Shown piece after piece: positions 12,004 to 23,169 of a stretch of DNA of 32,000 nucleotides (positions are counted from its first letter, which is position 1; each line of letters begins with the position of its first letter). The position numbers were made by a program, and so were the translations under genes. The DNA comes from Ureaplasma parvum serovar 3 str. ATCC 27815 (GTDB lineage: Bacteria; Bacillota_I; Bacilli_A; Mycoplasmatales; Mycoplasmoidaceae): assembly GCF_000019345.1 (NCBI RefSeq), contig NC_010503.1, positions 390,001 through 422,000 on the forward strand, written 5' to 3'. The notes under the pieces are model-generated. The model did no database searches. It worked only from the letters and a program-made list of their open reading frames with translations, and had not been told where the DNA came from.

Positions 12004-12687
12004 ATGAGTGCTATTAGTAAAAATATTATTATCATTAACAAACCAATAAAATGAACTTCTAATGATGTTGTTCAAAAGGTTAAACGGGTTATTGGTGCTA
12101 AAAAAGTTGGACATGCTGGAACTTTAGATCCTAATGCTTCAGGTGTTTTAGTATTGGGAATTAATGAAGGAACAAAACTATTAACAAAATTAATACTAGA
12201 TAATAAATCATATATTGCTGAAATTAAATTTGGAACATCAACAAATACTTATGATGCAGCAGGTGAAATTGTTTCATCTACAAACCGAATGGTTACATTA
12301 ACTGAGGTTACTAAAATAGTTAAAGATTTTTATAAAAATGATTATTGACAAAAACCCCCACAATTTAGCGCTTTAAAAATCAACGGGCAAAAAGCTTATG
12401 TTTTAGCACGTCAAAAAGTTGATTTTGAAATAGCACCACGATTAGTTAAAATATTTAAATATCAAATTATGGATTTCAATTATGAAAAACAAATTTTAAA
12501 AATTTCTTTACATGTTTCTAAAGGTTTTTATGTTCGTTCTTTTGCTGTTGATTTAGCTACTAAAATTAATAATCTAGCTCATTTATTGACATTAATAAGG
12601 ACGCAAAGTGGACCTTTTGAGATTAAAGATGCAATTGAAATTGAACAAGTCTATGATTATTGAAATAACATCAACAAATATTTATAA
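12004..12687 (+). CDS. truB: tRNA pseudouridine(55) synthase
   Basis: ATG 12004 is in frame with track ORFs 12154..12348 and 12469..12663 through TGA codons. The catalytic motif VGHAGTLDPNASGVLVLGINEGTK is present. The frame reads through TGA at 12661 to TAA at 12685-12687. Confidence 0.9.
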
Positions 12688-13504
12688 AATTAAGCAACAA
12701 TTCGTCATTAATGAATTAATTATTGGTTTTTTTGATGGAATTCATTTAGGTCATATGAATTTATTATCAGATCCTAATAACCAAACTATTTTAACTTTTA
12801 AAAATATCCCACGTAAAATAAAAAAATTATATGATTTTAATGAGCGAATTCAACAATTAGAAGATTTAGGATTTAAAAGGATTTTTATTTATGATATTGA
12901 TCAAAACAATTTAAGTGGGGAAGAATTTATTGATCAAATTTTAAAGCCACTAACTCCAAAAAAAATTATTGTTGGTGCTAATTTTACTTATGGCAATAAT
13001 TTTTGTAATGCATCTAGTCTAAAACAATATTTTAATGTTGAAATTAAAATTATTACTAATGATGTTAGTACAACTAAAATTAAAGAATTAATTATAAATA
13101 AACAGGTTGAAATAGCTAATAAATTATTAATTAAACCATATTATCGTGTGGGAAATGTTGTACGTGGCGATCAAATAGCTCGTAATATTGGTTTTAATAC
13201 TGCTAATATTTTATGTGATAATAATTTAATTGATATTGCTGAAGGTGTTTACAAAGCACAAGTAATTTTTAATAATAAAAAGTATGATAGTGTAGTTTAT
13301 TTAGGAATCCCTAAAACAATTAATACTCGCTCTTTTTCAATGATTGAAGCACATATTTTAGACTTTAATCAAAATATTTATGACGAAAGAATTAAGATTG
13401 TTTTTTTGAAATATTTAGCTCCTAATTTAAAATTTAATAATATAGATGAATTAATCACTGCAATTAAAAATTATATTAAATTGGTTCTTGATAAAACAAA
13501 TTAG
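12653..13504 (+). CDS. ribF: bifunctional riboflavin kinase / FMN adenylyltransferase
   Basis: Track ORF 12608..13504. The N-terminal nucleotidyltransferase motif IGFFDGIHLGH is present, with a riboflavin-kinase-like region at the C-terminus (RGDQIARNIGFNTANI ... EAHILDF). ATG 12653 preferred. Overlaps truB by 35 nt. Confidence 0.85.
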   Translation: MIIEITSTNIYKIKQQFVINELIIGFFDGIHLGHMNLLSDPNNQTILTFKNIPRKIKKLYDFNERIQQLEDLGFKRIFIYDIDQNNLSGEEFIDQILKPLTPKKIIVGANFTYGNNFCNASSLKQYFNVEIKIITNDVSTTKIKELIINKQVEIANKLLIKPYYRVGNVVRGDQIARNIGFNTANILCDNNLIDIAEGVYKAQVIFNNKKYDSVVYLGIPKTINTRSFSMIEAHILDFNQNIYDERIKIVFLKYLAPNLKFNNIDELITAIKNYIKLVLDKTN

Positions 13505-13646: not shown

Positions 13647-15314
13647 ATGAAGATGAAAGCTAAGAAATTTTTAATTACAGGATTATTAGGTGTAGTTAGT
13701 TTAGCAACTATTACCACAGTAGCTACAGCTTGTACAAATGGCAATAATCAAAAGGCTAATACAGTAAATAATAAGTCTGATTTAAAAACAAATCCAAATA
13801 TTAATTTAACTCAACAAGATGTAGAAAATTTGGAAAAACAAAGACAACAATGAAGTGAAGATTTAGATGTTTATTTTAATGGTGGGTTAAGTAAAAGTGG
13901 CAAAAATTTTGACCGTATAAATACATTATCATCAAATGCAACGGAATGATTTAAGAATCATCAAAAATTAGCGGCAACACGTGATTCTGGATCATTGGTA
14001 CAAGATGATGCAGCTTATTCATTTGGAATTGCACCCGATTATGTTCATTATAAATGAGTTTCAAAAGATGGTGGCGACGTTTCTCCATCATATTTAAAAC
14101 CATATTGAAATAAAAATTTAACTGAAGGTAGAAACTTTTCAAAATTAGACCCAAAGACTTTGGATGATAATGGAATCGGTGTTTTATTAATATCTGATCA
14201 CCATTATGGTAAATGAAATGATAATTTTTTAAGCAAAAAAACTGTTGGTGGATTAATTATGCAATCACGAGTTTCTGGTTTGCCATCACACTATCCTGCT
14301 GTTCTAACACCAAAATTTTTATTTGATCCTAATTTAAATCCAAATTTAAAAAAATATGCTTCTGCTAATTATGCGTTACCTAATTATTACTCTGACCCAC
14401 TAGATGGGATTATTTTAACAGGAAAAACTTTAGATCGTATTTATGATGCTAAAAAGTTTTCTAATGTTTATAATGCACATGTAGCTGGCAAAACACATTT
14501 TGAGACATTCACAGATTTTGCAAAGGCAATGGTTGATGAAACGCGTCGTGGAATTTCACAATGATCTTTAAAAAATGATAAATGAAAAGATAAAACAGTT
14601 TTAATGGTTATGCCTAACTTTACTCCAACAGCTAAAATGGTAGATGTTAATTTTAAACCAGAAGACTTAGAATTCTTGAGTAATGTTTGCATTAATGAAC
14701 CTATGTATTGTCCAACAATATATAGTGATCCAAATGATAAATATTTACCTGGATTAGGTGCAAAATTCCCTATTCCAGTAAATCATATTTCACAAGTGCA
14801 AAATTATATTGATGATTATGGACAAATTGGTGGAAAAGTATTAAATGGTACTGGTAATCCAGAAGCATCAAAACAAGTTGGCCCAACTTTAGGTGATGCT
14901 TTTAAAGATACAAGTGACGTTGTAGTTTTCTGTTATAACGAATACGGTTTATTAAATTACAAACCCGGAACTGAAGAAGGCGAAGCTTTAGTACAACAAT
15001 TTGAAAAGAATTTAACAAATTATGTTAATGGTTTAACAAAAGAAACAAAAAATCAATTTGTGCCAACAAAAGTTTTAAAAGAAAAACCAGTCGTGGGTAA
15101 GAATTTCTTTATTGAACGTAAAGGTAAGTTCTATGATGCATGTTATGGTTTTGCTGGTCAAGATTTAGTAGTTAATACATTAAATAAATGAACAAGGGGA
15201 GCTAACGCTCAAAATATAGATTTAGGGTATCCTATTTTTAATAAAAATACAGTTAAACACATTAGAGCATTTAAGGATTCTTTAGGTGTTAAAGTTTTAG
15301 ACAAACAAAAATAG
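13647..15314 (+). CDS. lipoprotein, paralog 1 of an unrecognised family (555 aa); first gene of the permease operon
   Basis: ATG 13647 follows TAAGGA. Signal peptide and lipobox: MKMKAKKFLITGLLGVVSLATITTVATA|C. Track ORFs 13578.., 14259..14564 and 14604..15191 are in frame and joined only by TGA codons (hand-checked). Stop is TAG at 15312-15314. Confidence 0.85.
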
Positions 15315-15328
15315 AGAAATAAATAGTT

Positions 15329-16399
15329 ATGCAAATAAAACAAGTAAATATTAATAAAAAAGATCTTTCTATTTATAAAAAACTCATTGAAGCAAAAAAA
15401 TTTGTTAGTACACAAATTCGTCGTCCTTATATGATAACGATTATTGTATTAACATTTATTATCTTAGCTGTTGGTATGTTTTTTATGAATGTTTTTTATG
15501 AAAAATCTACATATTTTGATGCGAATTATAATACTCATGTAACCTATTTTCGAACTTGAGCTAAAGTAGTAGCTGATGATAAAAGTATTTTATTGTATTG
15601 GTATCCACCTATCGTTAAATTATTTGTAGCAATTTCTATGCCGGTTGCTGGATATGCCATTCAGATTACAACTCAGAATCGTTTATCATCACCTTCAACA
15701 TTAGGATACATTCCAGTTTCAATTTTGGCTTATGTAGCAATGTTGATGATTGATCAAGGTAAAAGCTGATTAGTATATGTTTTTGGGTTTATATTTTCAT
15801 CATTTATCATTTTAGTTAATTATATTTTACAACGACAAAAATCTAGTAATCGTTCATTTAAACCAGTTTTAATTGGATTTGCTATATCTGCAACAATTAC
15901 AGCGGTAGGTTTAGTAATTGCTGTTTCACGTCCAAATATTTTAAATCGAGTGACAATTTGAACTGGTGAATTACCAAATGTTTATGAGTGATTAAAATTA
16001 TATATTTCAATGCCTTTAATTTTGATTTGTTTATTTGCTTTTTTAGTATTATCACCAAAATTAAAAATTATGCAACGCGATTTTGCTTTGGCAAAATCTT
16101 TAGGAATCAAAGTTAATTTAATTTTTTGAGTCGTGACAGTTTTAACAGCAATTGTAACAATTGCAACTGTTAATATTACAAGTCCCATGATTCTATTAGG
16201 TTTAATTATTCCAAATATAGTTAGGGCAACATTTAATAAACATGAACCATTATTTGTATTTTTTGTATCTATTGTATTTTCATTAGCATTGTTAGAAGTT
16301 TCATTATTTTTATCACTAAATTATCGTTTTGGTCCTAACTTTTTAATGGCTATTGTTAGTGCATTTGTGTTAATTTTTATTATGCGAAAACACGGATAA
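15329..16399 (+). CDS. FecCD/BtuC-family ABC importer permease (356 aa)
   Basis: Starts 14 nt after the lipoprotein stop. Track ORFs 15329.. and 16133..16399 are in frame through TGA codons. The motifs VAGYAIQITTQNRLSSPSTLGY and LAKSLGIKVN...ILLGLIIPNIVR correspond to BtuC GxxxQxxxxNPLAxPxxLG and ARxLG...FVGLxxPHxxR. Confidence 0.8.
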
Positions 16400-16404
16400 A
16401 TAAT

Positions 16405-17508
16405 ATGAAAAATCCATCACGATTTATATTTATAATAAAAAATAATATTTTAAATACCATTAACAATGCATCATTTATTGAAAATGGAAATTTCAAGAAA
16501 AAATTTCGGGTTTATGCACGCAAGCAACATTTAGCAGCTTGAGTTATTAGTATTGTTACAATTCTTTTTTTATCGTTATTAGTTATGTTTATTAAAATTA
16601 ATAACCAAGGTCAATTATTAAATAATCGGACTCCTTTAGATTTGTTTAAAGTAAATTATGAAACAATCTTACAAATTTGAATTACAGGAGCATCATTAGG
16701 AGCATCAGCTTATATGTTCCAACGGATTACTAAAAATCGATTAGTTGATACATCAACTCTTGGGATAGGTAATGTTTGTTTGATTGGGTTATTTTTTTTA
16801 GCAATATCAATTAATTTTGAAAATTATGGTTCTCAAAAACTTTTTGAAAATTTATTACCTTTTATTTTTATAATATCAGGAGTATGTGCCGGATTAATTT
16901 TGTATTGATTTTCAAAAAAACGAACCGGTTTTAGCCATACAAAGTTAATTGTCTCTGGTGTATTCATTAATTTTATTGCTATTGCTTTATCAATTAGCTT
17001 AAAAGACAATTTAACTCTAGTTGCATCAAATTATATTGACGATCGTTTGTTAGGTAATTTTTCAAACCGTAATAGTACTGAAAAATATTTAAGTTATGCT
17101 GTTTTTTTATTTTTAATGATATGATGCTTTTTGCGTTCTGCTAAATTTAAAGTTGTTATTACAGATACAATGATTGCTGAACAATTAGGATTAAAAGTAA
17201 AATTATTGAATTTAGAAATGATTTTTATCTCATCTTGTTTAACAGCTGTTTCATATATTATGGGAGGAAATGTATTATTTTTAGGAATTGCTGCAGCAAA
17301 TTTAGGGTATGCGGTTTTTGGTAATCGCTTTAGTTCATCAATAATTTTTTCAAGCTTCATCACCATTATCTTTTTAATTTTTGGTCAATTTATTTTAGAT
17401 AATATCGTTCAAAATTTAACTAGTTTGGTATTTGACGCCCCTATTGTAACTCCTTTATTAGTAGCTCCAATATTTACATTTATTATCTTATTTAAAAATA
17501 ATATTTAA
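16405..17508 (+). CDS. second, more divergent FecCD/BtuC-family permease (367 aa)
   Basis: Starts 5 nt after permease 1. Track ORFs 16714.. and 17131..17508 are in frame through TGA codons. Motifs: GASLGASAYMFQRITKNRLVDTSTLG, IAEQLGLKV...VLFLGIAAANLG, and C-terminal PIVTPLLVAPIFTFIIL. Confidence 0.7.
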
Positions 17509-17519
17509 GCACAATCTTA

Positions 17520-17561
17520 GTAGTGAACAAGCCATATTGTTCACTATTTTTTTTTTTTTTT
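17520..17561 (+). terminator. strong rho-independent terminator ending in a 16-T homopolymer
   Basis: tagtgaaca (17520-17528), loop agccatat, tgttcacta (17537-17545), then T16 (17546-17561). Confidence 0.8.
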
Positions 17562-17656: not shown

Positions 17657-19291
17657 ATGAAATATAAAAAAATTTGAATTACTTCAATAGCTTCTATTGC
17701 TTTTATAACAACTATTGTAAGTACAACTACAGCTTGTAGTAAAGTTAATAATGAAGTTAAGTCTTCAAATGACATTTTTAAACAAATATTACCAACTAAA
17801 GAAGAACTTACAAATTTAATTAAAAGACGTAAGGATTGAGCTAATGATTTACAAGTTTATTTTGAGGGTGGAAAGTCTGCTTCAGGAAAAGAATTTGAGC
17901 GAATTCAAACTTTAGCAACAAATGCAAGTATATATTATCAAAAGAACCAAAAAATTGCTATGACGCGTGATTCTGGCTCATTATGTCAAGATGATGCCGC
18001 ATATTCATTTGGAATTGCACCAGATATTTCTAATTATCGTTGAAAAGCAGGTGATGTAGAAGAAGTTGTACCACATTATTTATCTTACCTTTATAATCCT
18101 AAATTAACTAAAGGTATGGAACTTAAAGGTGTTAAAGCAGAAACATTAGCTGCTGAGAATGTAGGTACTTTATTTATTGCAGATTTTAAATTTGGAAATT
18201 ATAAAACTAATTTTTTAGATAAAAATAAAATAGGTGGAATTGTTATGCAGTCACGATCATCAGGTTTGCCTTCAAAAACACCAGCTTTATTCATGCCTAA
18301 TTGGTTATTTGGTAAAAATAACCCTTATTTAGAGACTGACGTTAACGCTTCAGCTGGAATTACAGATTTTTTTGTTGATCCATATGATGGCTTAATCTTT
18401 ACAGGTAAAACCTTAGATCGCATTTATGATGCAAAAAAATTTGATAATGTTAATAAAGCGGTTATTGATGGTAAAAGCAATTTTCAAACATTTACAGATT
18501 ATGCAAAAGCAATTGTTAGTGTTGTACGAAAGAATGTTTCGAATTGAGCTAAACAACATAGTTATTGAAAAAATAAAACTGTTGTTATGACAATGCCAAA
18601 CGTAATGAAAGGAGCACGAATTATTGATCCTAATTTTAGTAAAGATGATTTACTATTCTTAGGTAATATTTTTATTCCACAACCTGTTTATTTTCCAATT
18701 TTATATGCAGACCAAAATGATGAATATACACCTGGATTAGGAGCTAAATTTCCTATTCCTAAAAAAGATATAAATGAAGTTCAACGCTATGTAGATAATT
18801 GAGGTTGAATAGGTGGAGCAATTTTAAGTGATGCTACTAATCCTGATGCTGCAAAACGTGTTGGTCCAACATTGGGTGAAGCTTTTGAAGGAACGGTTGA
18901 TAAAGTAATTTATTCATATAATGAATATTTAATTAAAGGATATAAACCAGGAACAGCAGAAGGTGAAGCTATAATTAAAAAATTCGAAGCTAATTTAGCA
19001 AAATATGTAAATAGTTTAGATATAAATACAAAAAATAGTTTTAATCCTACAAGGATTTTAAAAGAAAAGCCAGTGGTAGGTAAAAACTTTTTTATCGAAA
19101 GAAAAGGTAATATTTACGATGCTAATTATGGATTTATAGGTCAAAAAACTATGGTTAATATTTTAAATCGTTGAATGAATGGTGAAAATAGTCCAGAAGT
19201 TGATTTGGGTATTCCTAATTTTACTAAGGATAATGTTAAACATTTACGTGCTTTTAAAGATGAATTAAATGTTAAAAATACTGATGAATAA
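17657..19291 (+). CDS. lipoprotein, paralog 2 (544 aa)
   Basis: Signal peptide and lipobox: MKYKKIWITSIASIAFITTIVSTTTA|C. Track ORFs 18116.., 18587.. and 18872..19174 are in frame, and I translated the N-terminal 459 nt by hand without meeting a TAA or TAG. Stop is TAA at 19289-19291. Collinear with paralog 1. Confidence 0.85.
18347..18505 (+). repeat. 159-nt block identical to 20071-20229 (paralog 2 copy)
   Basis: Base-by-base comparison from gcttcagctggaattacag to cagattatgc shows no mismatch. Flanking coding sequence is clearly diverged. Confidence 0.9.
18839..19291 (+). repeat. 3'-terminal ~450-nt near-identical block (paralog 2 copy) interrupted by a divergent patch at 19075-19153
   Basis: Aligns to 20566-21018 at a constant offset of 1727. 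By manual alignment there are 2 mismatches before the patch, 2 after it, and about 20 inside it. Confidence 0.85.
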
Positions 19292-19383: not shown

Positions 19384-21018
19384 ATGAAGTTGAAGTTTAA
19401 AAAAATCTTATTATCTATATCAACTAGTTTAATAATTTTATCATCAATTATTACAATTGCTGCATGTAGCAATCAAGTAAAATCTAAAACAAATTTTTCA
19501 AAAACAACACCAACTTTAGAAGAATTGACTGAGCTTAAAAAAAGAGAAGAAGCATGAAAAGCTGATTTAGAAGTTTATTTTGAAGGTGGAGTAAGTAAGT
19601 CAGGAAAAAAATTTAATCGAATTGAAACTTTATCATCAAAAGCTAGTTCTTATTATCAAAAAAACCAAAAAATTGCGGTTACTAATGATTCTAGTTCGTT
19701 ATGTCAAGATGATGCACTATATGCATTTGGAATCGCACCTGATTATTCTGGCTTTCGTTGAAAAACAAGCGAACTTGAAGAAGTACATCCTCATTATTTA
19801 AATTATTTATACAACTCTAAACTAACAAAGGGAATGAATTTCACAGGTAAAGGAGCATTACCAGAGAATTTTGCTAAATTAAATGTGGGTACATTATTTA
19901 TTGCTGATTTTAAATTCAATAAGTATAAAGAAAATTTTTTAGATAAAAATGAAATTGGTGGTGTAGCAATGCAATCACGATCATCAGGTTTGCCTTCAAA
20001 AACACCAGCCTTATTCATGCCTAGCTGGTTGTTTGGTAAAAATAATCCTTATTTAGAAACTGATGTTAATGCTTCAGCTGGAATTACAGATTTTTTTGTT
20101 GATCCATATGATGGCTTAATCTTTACAGGTAAAACCTTAGATCGCATTTATGATGCAAAAAAATTTGATAATGTTAATAAAGCGGTTATTGATGGTAAAA
20201 GCAATTTTCAAACATTTACAGATTATGCTAATGTTGCTGTAAAAGCTGTTCGAAAAAGAGTTTCACAATGAGCAAAACAAAATAATAAATGAAAAGATAA
20301 AACAACGGTTATGATTAGTCCTGATGTAATGCCAAATGGTCGAATTGTAGATCCAAACATTACTAAAGAAGATTTATTACATTTAAGTAATTTTTTTATT
20401 ACCCAACCCGTTTATTTACCAATTTTATATGCTGATCAAAATCATCCTTATACACCTGGAATGGGTTGTAAATTCCCTATTCCTAAAAAACACTTAGAAG
20501 ATGTACAAAAATATATTGATAATTGAGGTTGAATAGGCGGTGCAATATTATCATCTAGTGCAGAAAATCCTGATGCTGCAAAACGTGTTGGTCCAACATT
20601 GGGTGAAGCTTTTGAAGGAACGGTTGATAAAGTAATTTATTCATATAATGAATATTTAATTAAAGGATATAAACCAGGAACAGCAGAAGGAGAAGCTGTA
20701 ATTAAAAAATTCGAAGCTAATTTAGCAAAATATGTAAATAGTTTAGATATAAATACAAAAAATAGTTTTAATCCTACAAGGATTTTAAAAGAAAAGCCAG
20801 TTGTTGGTAAAAATTTCTTTATTGAACGTGAAGGAACATTCTGCGATGGTTGTTATGGTTTTATGGGTCAAAAAACAATTGTTAATATTTTAAATCGTTG
20901 AATGAATGGTGAAAATAGTCCAGAAGTTGATTTGGGTACTCCTAATTTTACTAAGGATAATGTTAAACATTTACGTGCTTTTAGAGATGAATTAAATGTT
21001 AAAAATACTGATGAATAA
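19384..21018 (+). CDS. lipoprotein, paralog 3 (544 aa)
   Basis: Signal peptide and lipobox: MKLKFKKILLSISTSLIILSSIITIAA|C, after AAGGAA. Track ORFs 19834.., 20311.. and 20599..20901 are in frame through TGA codons. Stop is TAA at 21016-21018. Confidence 0.85.
20071..20229 (+). repeat. 159-nt block identical to 18347-18505 (paralog 3 copy)
   Basis: Same comparison as for the paralog 2 copy. Confidence 0.9.
20566..21018 (+). repeat. 3'-terminal ~450-nt near-identical block (paralog 3 copy)
   Basis: Partner of 18839-19291. Within the patch (20802-20880) this copy shares exact runs with paralog 1 (aatttctttattgaacgt, tgttatggtttt). Confidence 0.85.
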
Positions 21019-21175: not shown

Positions 21176-21700
21176 ATGAAAAATAAGTATTTTAGAAAAA
21201 ATAAATTTTGGTTATTAATACCAATAAGTTTTGTAAGTCTTGGAAGTATTACATTAGTTGCTACTGCTTGTGTAAAGAAAAATTTTTATCCTAATACATT
21301 TGCAGATGATCAGATTTATATCACTAAGAATAATGAAAAAACTGTTAAGTTTCGTATTAGTCGTAATGATGAAGAAAATAAAAAGTATTTTAAAGATGAT
21401 CTTAAATGAAATACTTTCATTAATAAACTTAAAAAAACTTATATTAATGTTGAAACTGTTATTCCAAAAGAAAACGCAAAACAAAATATTAAGCAACAAG
21501 ATTTATGCATGCGCGCATTACCTGTACAAGTTTTAAGTAATAATAAATATGTTGATATTTACGTAAAGATTCCTGTTTTATTAGCTAATACTAAAATGTT
21601 AGTTGTTGGTGATGATTTACTAAAATCATTTTATTTTGATACAGATAACTTAATAATGAATGCTAAACATTTTCAACCAATTCCTATCAAAATGCTTTAG
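21176..21700 (+). CDS. small lipoprotein (174 aa), unrelated to the large paralogs
   Basis: Signal peptide and lipobox: MKNKYFRKNKFWLLIPISFVSLGSITLVATA|C. Track ORFs 21176..21409 and 21509..21700 are in frame through one TGA. AAGGA ribosome-binding site. Confidence 0.7.
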
Positions 21701-21713
21701 TTTGTTAATAAAT

Positions 21714-21743
21714 AAAAACCTCTTTTTAAAGAAGGAGGTTTTT
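21714..21743. terminator. bidirectional terminator between the small lipoprotein gene and gapN
   Basis: aaaaacctc (21714-21722) pairs with gaggttttt (21735-21743). A/T runs on both sides. Overlaps the gapN stop. Confidence 0.6.
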
Positions 21744-23169
21744 ATTTATTAATGATTATTCCTTTGATTGTTGTCATTGATAAAATTGCATCAACAATAC
21801 CTTGAACACCAAATCCAGAATCTTTAACACCAAAAAAAGGTAAAATATCTGGACCACGTGAACTTGATTTATTAATGTTAATTGTTCCTGATTCAATTTG
21901 TAAAGCTAATTGTTCAATACTTGCATAATTTGTTGTAAAAATACAAGCTTGTAAACCATATTGTGATTGATTAATTAAATCAATAGCTTCTTGTATACTA
22001 TTATAAGTTATAATTGGTAAAATAGGACCGAATGGTTCTTCTCAAGCTACGCGCATTTCTTTTGTAACATTATCAATTACTAAAGGATGCAAAAGGTTAT
22101 TTTTTTCATTATAAACGATTTTTTGGTGTACTATTGCTCCTTTTTTGATTGCATCCTCAACTAATGATAAGTTATATTTTAATGAATTAGAATTAATTAA
22201 TGGAGTAATTATGGGATTTTGTTGTGGTAAACCGACTGTTAAAGCGTCAACTTTTTTGTTAATTAAATTAACTAATAAATCATGATTTTTATGCGAAACA
22301 AATACTCGTTTGATTGCAGTACATCTTTGCCCGCTAAAGCCATAAGCACCTTTAACTATTTCATTAGCAGCTAGTTCAAAATCCGCATCATCTAAAACAA
22401 GGGCTGGATCTTTTCCTCCTAATTCTAAAACTAAAGAAATCTTTGATGTTATTTCAGCAATATGATTGCCTACTTTAGGTCCGCCCGTAAAGCTAATCGC
22501 TTTAACATATTTATTAGTAACTAGTAGATCACCTGTTATACGTGCTTCAGTTGTTAAGCAGTTAACAACTCCTTTTGGAAAACCTACTTCATGAACTAAT
22601 TCACTAATTCGAATACCAATTAATGAACCTTGTGTTGATGGTTTATAAACTAAACTATTACCAGAAACTAATGCTGGTGCTAATTTTGAAATCAATAAGT
22701 TAATAGGATAATTAAAAGGACAAATTGCTAAAACAACACCAACTGGAATACGATAATATGTTGCCACTTTGTTTTTAACATGGTGAACTGTTTCATCAAA
22801 AATAATTGGTTTTTGCATTAATTTTTGATACTCAAAAACTGTTTCGCGTAAATAATCAGCACTTCGTTCAACTTCAATTAGGCTATCTTTTAATCCTTTT
22901 GCAATTTCAGTACTAATAATTTGTGCTAATTCTTGTTTATGTTCATCTAGTTTATCGGCTAATTTTAAAAGTAGATCACAACGATATTTAATTGGTGTGT
23001 CCTTAAATTTTAGATATGCTATATGAGCATTTTCAAAAATAGTATTAATTTCATTTTCATTATGAATGTTAGGAACATAAGCAATAATTTGATTATTAGA
23101 TGGATTATAAACTGGTAGTTTTTCTTTAGCATCAACAAATGCTCCATTAATTAATGTTTTATAGTTCAA
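21742..23169 (-). CDS. gapN: NADP-dependent non-phosphorylating glyceraldehyde-3-phosphate dehydrogenase
   Basis: Track ORF 22042..23169 continues through TGA in MRVAWEEPFGPILPII to TAA at 21742. The ALDH motifs ELGGKD and FGFSGQRCTA are present, and by eye it is collinear with streptococcal GapN over its whole length. TTG start is 8 nt after GGAGG. Confidence 0.85.

Follow-up and report, generated by a model that had tools for sequence, protein, structure and literature searches.

Introduction

FecCD-type permease operons that lack an ATPase of their own are established in Staphylococcus aureus, where the ATPase FhuC serves the Fhu, Hts, Sir and Isd systems (PMC10147376). Here we describe a comparable arrangement in Ureaplasma parvum serovar 3 str. 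ATCC 27815, the locus UU356-UU360, in which the gene for a large lipoprotein (lipoprotein A) is followed by genes for two FecCD-type permeases (permeases 1 and 2) and two further lipoproteins (B and C). The window is the whole stretch of DNA analysed, 32,000 nt from position 390,001 to 422,000 of the forward strand of NC_010503.1, and coordinates are positions within it. The annotation of U. parvum lists five FecCD loci, UU022-028, UU069-071, UU356-360, UU399-401 and UU515-517, and one fecE ATP-binding protein, UU069, which lies beside the permease UU070 and the binding protein UU071 (PMC2751442). In database records the present locus is already annotated as an iron ATP-binding cassette (ABC) transporter with substrate-binding proteins (SBPs).

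We consider it probable that the UU356-360 unit is an importer of a known kind, namely a type II (BtuCD/FhuBCD-type) ABC importer with a divergent SBP and an ATPase supplied in trans. This reading draws on the gene structure, the FecCD membership of the permeases, the predicted fold of lipoprotein A, the conserved synteny and the complete homologous operons present elsewhere in Mollicutes. The unit would provide the extracellular and membrane parts of the importer. Lipoprotein A would be held by its lipid anchor on the outside of the membrane, would capture an iron chelate, heme or a similar bulky ligand and would dock onto the heterodimer of permeases 1 and 2, insertions and divergence having put it beyond the reach of sequence models. 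Lipoproteins B and C may be alternative SBPs, probably for the same permease pair, much as staphylococci have FhuD1 and FhuD2, and the ATPase would most likely be UU069. The apparent anomaly of a transporter without an engine and with an unrecognisable SBP would then resolve into a standard importer architecture with its ATPase in trans, because the SBP would be extremely diverged and the ATPase encoded elsewhere.

Gene organization of the UU356-UU360 locus

The window has a base composition of about 25% G+C, and genes were called with genetic code 4, in which TGA encodes Trp. Table 11, the standard bacterial code, splits the window genes into fragments whereas table 4 gives intact open reading frames (ORFs); four to eight in-frame TGA codons occur in each of the five genes of interest (three lipoproteins and two permeases). 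Exact sequence matches, taken with the supplementary gene list of PMC2751442, identify the locus as UU356-UU360. Its features are:

13647-15314, + strand: lipoprotein A, UU356 position, 555 aa; code-4 ORF with a lipoprotein signal peptide
14406-14429, + strand: chance match to the P-loop pattern, GIILTGKT, within lipoprotein A (regular expression match)
15018-15035, + strand: recombination crossover inside lipoprotein A, a switch from LP1-type to LP2-type sequence relative to the locus L002 (see below)
15329-16399, + strand: permease 1, FecCD-type, UU357, 'fecD', 356 aa; PF01032, E 3e-40
16405-17508, + strand: permease 2, FecCD-type, UU358, 'fatC-2', 367 aa; PF01032, E 5e-57
17519-17561, + strand: intrinsic terminator, with a 12-pair stem (17519-17548) and a 6-nt loop, then 13 T
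17657-19291, + strand: lipoprotein B, UU359, 544 aa; candidate paralogous binding protein
19384-21018, + strand: lipoprotein C, UU360 position, 544 aa; candidate paralogous binding protein

A Shine-Dalgarno-like AAGGA precedes the start codon of lipoprotein A. The gaps of 14 nt between lipoprotein A and permease 1 and of 5 nt between the two permeases are exactly those given in a first-pass annotation made from the sequence without database searches, and the strong terminator which it reported is also there. Lipoprotein A, the two permeases and the terminator form one tight unit. The gene trio of that annotation is thus borne out, but the two paralogous lipoprotein genes directly downstream had been overlooked.

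Predicted fold of lipoprotein A

Lipoprotein A begins with a signal peptide and a lipobox (...VATAC), and its N-terminus matches the NCBIfam model for Vmc-like lipoprotein signal peptides (24.5 bits, with the cut-off at 19.3). Its exact sequence is found in ACA33261.1, a 'putative lipoprotein' of U. parvum serovar 3 str. ATCC 27815. The first-pass annotation had described a protein of nearly twice the usual binding-protein size with no placeable motif, and this agrees with a mature size of about 520 aa, compared to about 290 aa for a usual class III SBP, and with the lack of any match in Pfam, NCBIfam or PDB sequences beyond the signal peptide. None of 17 close and 10 distant members of the family matched Peripla_BP_2 (PF01497) at E <= 1-10, and searches of Pfam and NCBIfam with close and distant family members returned noise only. 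Profile searches against PDB sequences returned DegV (E 1.3) and YIR035C (E 0.026), which we rejected as chance matches.

Structure prediction was more informative. An AlphaFold2 model computed with 14 close Ureaplasma homologues alone was unusable, with a predicted local distance difference test score (pLDDT) of 39. A second model was built on P0001, which is 94% identical to lipoprotein A, with 29 sequences including distant relatives; it reached a pLDDT of 83.4 and a predicted template modelling score (pTM) of 0.85. It is composed of two beta/alpha lobes joined by a long helix (residues 288-309), as is characteristic of the class III fold. When this model was compared to the PDB with Foldseek, all of the 50 best matches were class III siderophore or heme SBPs, among them PiaA, Rv0265c, MhuP, YfiY, HtsA, SirA, FhuD2, FtsB and CeuE, mostly with probabilities of 0.9-1.0 and with template modelling (TM) scores, normalised to the targets of about 290 aa, of up to 0.63. 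The hidden class III fold that the first-pass annotation had proposed to look for is therefore present in the model, and its view of the lipoprotein as a capture component is upheld at this level. Judged from its predicted structure, lipoprotein A is a very divergent, enlarged class III SBP.

The older label of UU356, 'ATP/GTP-binding protein' (PMC2751442 supplement), implied something quite different, a nucleotide-binding P-loop protein which might even replace the ATPase. The PROSITE-type P-loop pattern [AG]-x4-G-K-[ST] does match all three paralogous lipoproteins, as G[IL]I[LF]TGKT in a regular expression search, so that the earlier statement that the only Walker A of the window lies in Lon has to be amended. 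However, the pattern is lost in orthologues, reading GRM in P0023, AKM in P0024 and AGQ in P0026, with U. canigenitalium among those in which it is not conserved. There is no match to ABC_tran or to any other NTPase family of Pfam, class III SBPs are the only match of the predicted fold, and a secreted, lipid-anchored protein would not be on the side of the membrane where an ATPase works. We rejected a P-loop NTPase on the grounds of motif conservation, lipoprotein location and fold, and find it scarcely credible; GIILTGKT is fortuitous rather than a real P-loop and is probably the source of the old label.

A lipoprotein family in Mollicutes

A word-indexed protein search returned Ureaplasma proteins only, all from the UU356-360-type locus. 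A profile search, run exhaustively over 1.84 billion representatives, identified 31 proteins of 450-670 aa, with a lipoprotein-type signal peptide in all members read and with no Pfam or NCBIfam family for any member. A scan of genome contigs revealed one locus, in U. canigenitalium, where the orthologous lipoprotein precedes two FecCD genes with no ATPase, and a metagenome scan for Ureaplasma paralogues found none.

Genomic context was read for nine distant relatives, and in seven of these loci the lipoprotein gene lies directly upstream of a FecCD pair, which answers in the affirmative the question raised by the first-pass annotation of whether the family and FecCD genes occur together across Mollicutes. 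Overall, loci with a family member immediately upstream of a FecCD pair come from U. urealyticum, U. canigenitalium and U. diversum, from the UU401 locus and from other Mollicutes. Because family members precede FecCD pairs in most of the loci read, the family appears to fill the binding-protein position of FecCD importers throughout Mollicutes. The ORFs stay intact in species whose proteins are only 35-50% identical, and this indicates purifying selection.

Alignment of the UU356/359/360-type group with the other relatives (P0029-P0047) using hhalign gave two matches in swapped order: query residues 233-541 correspond to target residues 66-335 (99.8% probability) and query residues 103-217 to target residues 340-448 (81.5% probability). 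In other words, the C-terminal half of lipoprotein A matches the N-terminal part of these relatives while its N-lobe region, carrying 'AYSFGIAPDY', matches their C-terminal part. P0034 has the canonical half order, as does the UU356/359/360-type group. The alignments indicate that most Mollicutes relatives are probably a circular permutation of the two halves. This family, about 30 clusters of large lipoproteins, merits a profile model of its own as well as screening for ligands.

The FecCD permeases

Both permeases match the Pfam family FecCD (PF01032), with scores of 138.6 and 193.7 bits (cut-off 26.5), over profile positions 3-311 of 311, in accordance with the BtuC/FecCD signatures which the first-pass annotation had recognised in them. 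They align over their full length with the PDB sequences of BtuC, HmuU and FhuB. HmuU is the top PDB match of permease 1, followed by FhuB, and the full-length alignment of permease 2 to BtuC and FhuB includes the coupling-helix motif A-x-Q-L-G-L. Permease 1 is an exact match to AAF30766.1. Permease 2 is 100% identical to P0016, a U. parvum 'iron ABC transporter permease', and is kept at 45-49% identity in other Ureaplasma species. The cytoplasmic coupling helix (L-loop) A-x-x-L-G, onto which the ATPase docks, is present in both proteins: permease 2 has IAEQLGL where BtuC has SARQLGL, and permease 1 has LAKSLGI where HmuU has EAHYLGV.

The side facing the SBP is less typical. In the BtuCD-F structure the arginines of an R-x-P-R motif, located before transmembrane helix 2, pair with conserved glutamates of the SBP. 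E. coli FhuB has RWPR in its C-terminal half and LPR in its N-terminal half, and BtuC also carries R-x-P-R. The motif is absent from the window permeases and from all 21 Mollicutes permeases aligned, where YPPIVK- or ETILQ-type sequences occupy its site. We treat R-x-P-R as a variable feature of the FecCD family, not as a strictly defining one, and the SBP-docking surface may have co-evolved with its loss. The site lies at about 15590-15610 in permease 1 and about 16650-16670 in permease 2; the other permeases come from the loci L001, L008, L010, L013, L014, L016 and L017.

The doubled size, the two permuted forms and the missing motif leave room for a more specific proposal, which we put forward as no more than a tentative and rather unlikely one. 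The lipoproteins might constitute a lineage-specific class III SBP family with a new docking interface for permeases devoid of R-x-P-R, and their extra residues, some 230, might be there to capture not a free chelate but a host-bound source, for instance a carrier protein for heme or iron. If this were true, capture from a host-bound source would explain why nine paralogues are kept in a 0.75-Mb genome.

The missing ATPase

No ABC ATPase was detected in the window by tblastn under code 4 with FhuC of E. coli and two FecE-type ATPases from Mollicutes as queries (E <= 0.01), in agreement with the first-pass annotation, and tblastn likewise found no FecE-type ATPase in any Ureaplasma locus retrieved. 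Complete operons do exist in Mollicutes: at two loci, L014 and L017, the order is lipoprotein-FecCD-FecCD-ABC_tran, with ATPases showing 29-34% identity to FhuC, and at L016 the contig stops 35 codons into a gene which matches the ATPase N-terminus. Together with the A-x-x-L-G motif kept in the permeases and the annotated fecE gene UU069 (PMC2751442), these operons tell against a system working without any ATPase, and their gene order tells against permeases recruited to a different partner, the two alternatives that the first-pass annotation had left standing. Its interpretation is supported for the capture component and for the co-occurrence with FecCD genes, and finds no support for the ATPase-less system or other partner.

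The ATPases of L014 (9421-10524) and L017 (13655-14728) are of the FecE/FhuC type and measure 357-367 aa compared to 265 aa for FhuC; in the tblastn alignment, that of L014 has about 100 additional residues between the Walker A and Q-loop regions.

Since the annotation holds one fecE gene against five FecCD loci, and given the precedent of FhuC in S. aureus, UU069 is most likely the shared ATPase of all five loci. The first-pass annotation had named a complete binding-protein and ATPase set elsewhere in the genome as a finding that would speak against its interpretation; the annotated trio UU069/UU070/UU071 comes close to this, with UU069 known from annotation only.

Alternatively, the permeases may be energised by an ATPase other than UU069, for example the A-components of an energy-coupling factor (ECF) transporter, or may form an ATP-independent facilitator gated by the lipoprotein. 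No ATPase adjoins any Ureaplasma locus examined, and in U. diversum one FecCD pair is followed, at a distance of about 1.5 kb, by an EcfA/EcfA'/EcfT module. In S. aureus, moreover, other ATPases can partly substitute for FhuC (PMC10147376). The coupling-helix motif is nevertheless kept in both permeases, the homologous operons have a dedicated FecE/FhuC-like ATPase with the above identity to FhuC, and the annotation does name a fecE gene. We know of no type II importer that is independent of an ATPase. This explanation therefore seems unlikely to us, and we retain the importer with an ATPase in trans.

Paralogues and origin of lipoprotein A

Lipoproteins B and C are 51% and 50% identical to lipoprotein A. 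They are 76% identical to each other overall, with blocks of 98-100% identity (alignment columns 250-300 and 450-500) that suggest gene conversion. The number of downstream lipoprotein genes differs among strains, which have one copy, two copies or a truncated copy of 422 aa. A longer form of the locus is found in L002, from a closely related assembly (GCA_000169575.2), and in U. urealyticum strains, where the order is LP1(549)-FecCD(366)-LP2(541)-FecCD(356)-FecCD(367)-LP3-LP4.

When the window was compared to the undeleted locus L002 (10001-14570), its DNA proved to be 100% identical to the LP1 region through 15017 and to follow the LP2 region from 15036 on. The informative sites switch cleanly, the last LP1-type site being at 15017 and the first LP2-type site at 15036. 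Because the window DNA follows first LP1 and then LP2, lipoprotein A is an in-frame hybrid of these tandem paralogues, generated by homologous recombination. The event removed about 2.9 kb, made up of the 3' end of LP1, most of LP2 and a third FecCD gene. Only 2 public contigs contain the hybrid in its exact 555-aa form, compared to well over 100 for the undeleted 549-aa forms, and the hybrid is thus rare among sequenced strains. The 14-nt junction between lipoprotein and permease derives from LP2, and its pairing with an LP1-type protein is rare among these strains. The hybrid gene illustrates how recombination between tandem paralogues reshapes the locus.

Such variability might be expected if the lipoproteins acted chiefly as variable surface antigens or in interactions with the host, with an SBP fold left over from their ancestry and with permeases that are decaying duplicates without transport activity. 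The strain-dependent copy number (one or two downstream copies, the truncated 422-aa copy and the 2.9-kb deletion seen here), the gene-conversion-like identical blocks shared by lipoproteins B and C, the Vmc-like signal peptide, of a type also found in variable lipoproteins, and the distant relatives that stand alone would all fit this explanation. It is difficult to reconcile with ORFs that are all intact, the hybrid gene itself being in frame, with a permease 2 that is 100% identical between strains and maintained in the other Ureaplasma species at the identity given above, and with an adjacency of lipoprotein and FecCD genes which spans a large evolutionary distance and a swap in domain order. 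We judge it quite improbable and continue to favour SBPs serving a FecCD importer.

Neighbouring features

In all strains examined, the lipoprotein array is followed by a gene for a 174-aa lipoprotein with no family match (21176-21700 in the window). Next comes a hairpin with a 20-bp stem (21705-21752), located between convergent genes, which could act as a bidirectional terminator; the gene converging on the 174-aa lipoprotein encodes a gapN-like aldehyde dehydrogenase on the opposite strand. In the U. urealyticum-type loci L003, L005 and L006, two small extra genes follow the 174-aa gene at a distance of about 170 bp (L003 16452-17230, for example), encoding proteins of 101 aa, with HTH_38/Sigma70_r4 matches, and 112 aa. 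The code-4 calls contain no ORF of >= 80 aa at this position in the window.

Upstream of the locus, the truB (12004-12687) and ribF (FAD synthetase/riboflavin kinase, 12608-13504) ORFs overlap by 80 nt when read from their first start codons, and ribF probably starts at a codon further downstream.

In U. diversum (CP009770, L013 4198-7021) a 256-aa ORF lies ahead of a second FecCD pair. This ORF was considered as a short member of the lipoprotein family and rejected, as it lacks a signal peptide and a lipobox, matches nothing in Pfam and shows no similarity to the family. The second pair may have neither an SBP nor an ATPase nearby.

Discussion

Several points weigh against an importer of the known kind energised by UU069. 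The role given to UU069 is that of an annotation of the 2000 era, and its partnership with UU357/UU358 is putative. Since R-x-P-R is missing from every Mollicutes permease aligned, docking of the SBP may differ from the canonical mode. Finally, two of the nine distant relatives are solitary: within 10 kb of them there is no FecCD gene.

What the present work adds to the existing annotation is support at the level of the predicted fold, the recognition of a Mollicutes-wide lipoprotein family which lacks a profile model and seems to include a domain-order swap, and the hybrid origin of UU356.

Comparison with known systems

The closest parallels are the HtsABC, SirABC and IsdEF systems of S. aureus. 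These are likewise FecCD operons with a class III lipoprotein SBP and no ATPase of their own, and all are energised by FhuC, whose gene belongs to a different iron-uptake operon (PMC10147376). HtsA and SirA are among the Foldseek matches of the lipoprotein model. Staphylococci also have several SBPs per transporter (FhuD1 and FhuD2), an arrangement which lipoproteins A-C resemble. Siderophore production is not known from Ureaplasma. In contrast to those of S. aureus, the candidate Ureaplasma SBPs are nearly double in length and are not detected by the Peripla_BP_2 model, and sharing of the ATPase is putative, as suggested by annotation.

E. coli FhuBCD and BtuCDF and Yersinia HmuTUV have permeases of the same family, PF01032, and a two-lobe SBP with a backbone helix, as predicted for Ureaplasma; the related Mollicutes operons also have a FhuC-like ATPase. 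In Ureaplasma, by contrast, the putative ATPase gene is outside the operon, the SBP is larger and carries a lipid anchor, and the permeases are without R-x-P-R.

With respect to Peripla_BP_2 itself (PF01497; cluster A-II/class III), the lipoprotein departs in giving no sequence match even at E <= 10, in its length (~520 versus ~290 aa) and in the apparent exchange of the two halves in most Mollicutes relatives. It is alike in its predicted fold, in its position upstream of FecCD genes and in its lipid anchor, which is as in the Gram-positive members of that family.

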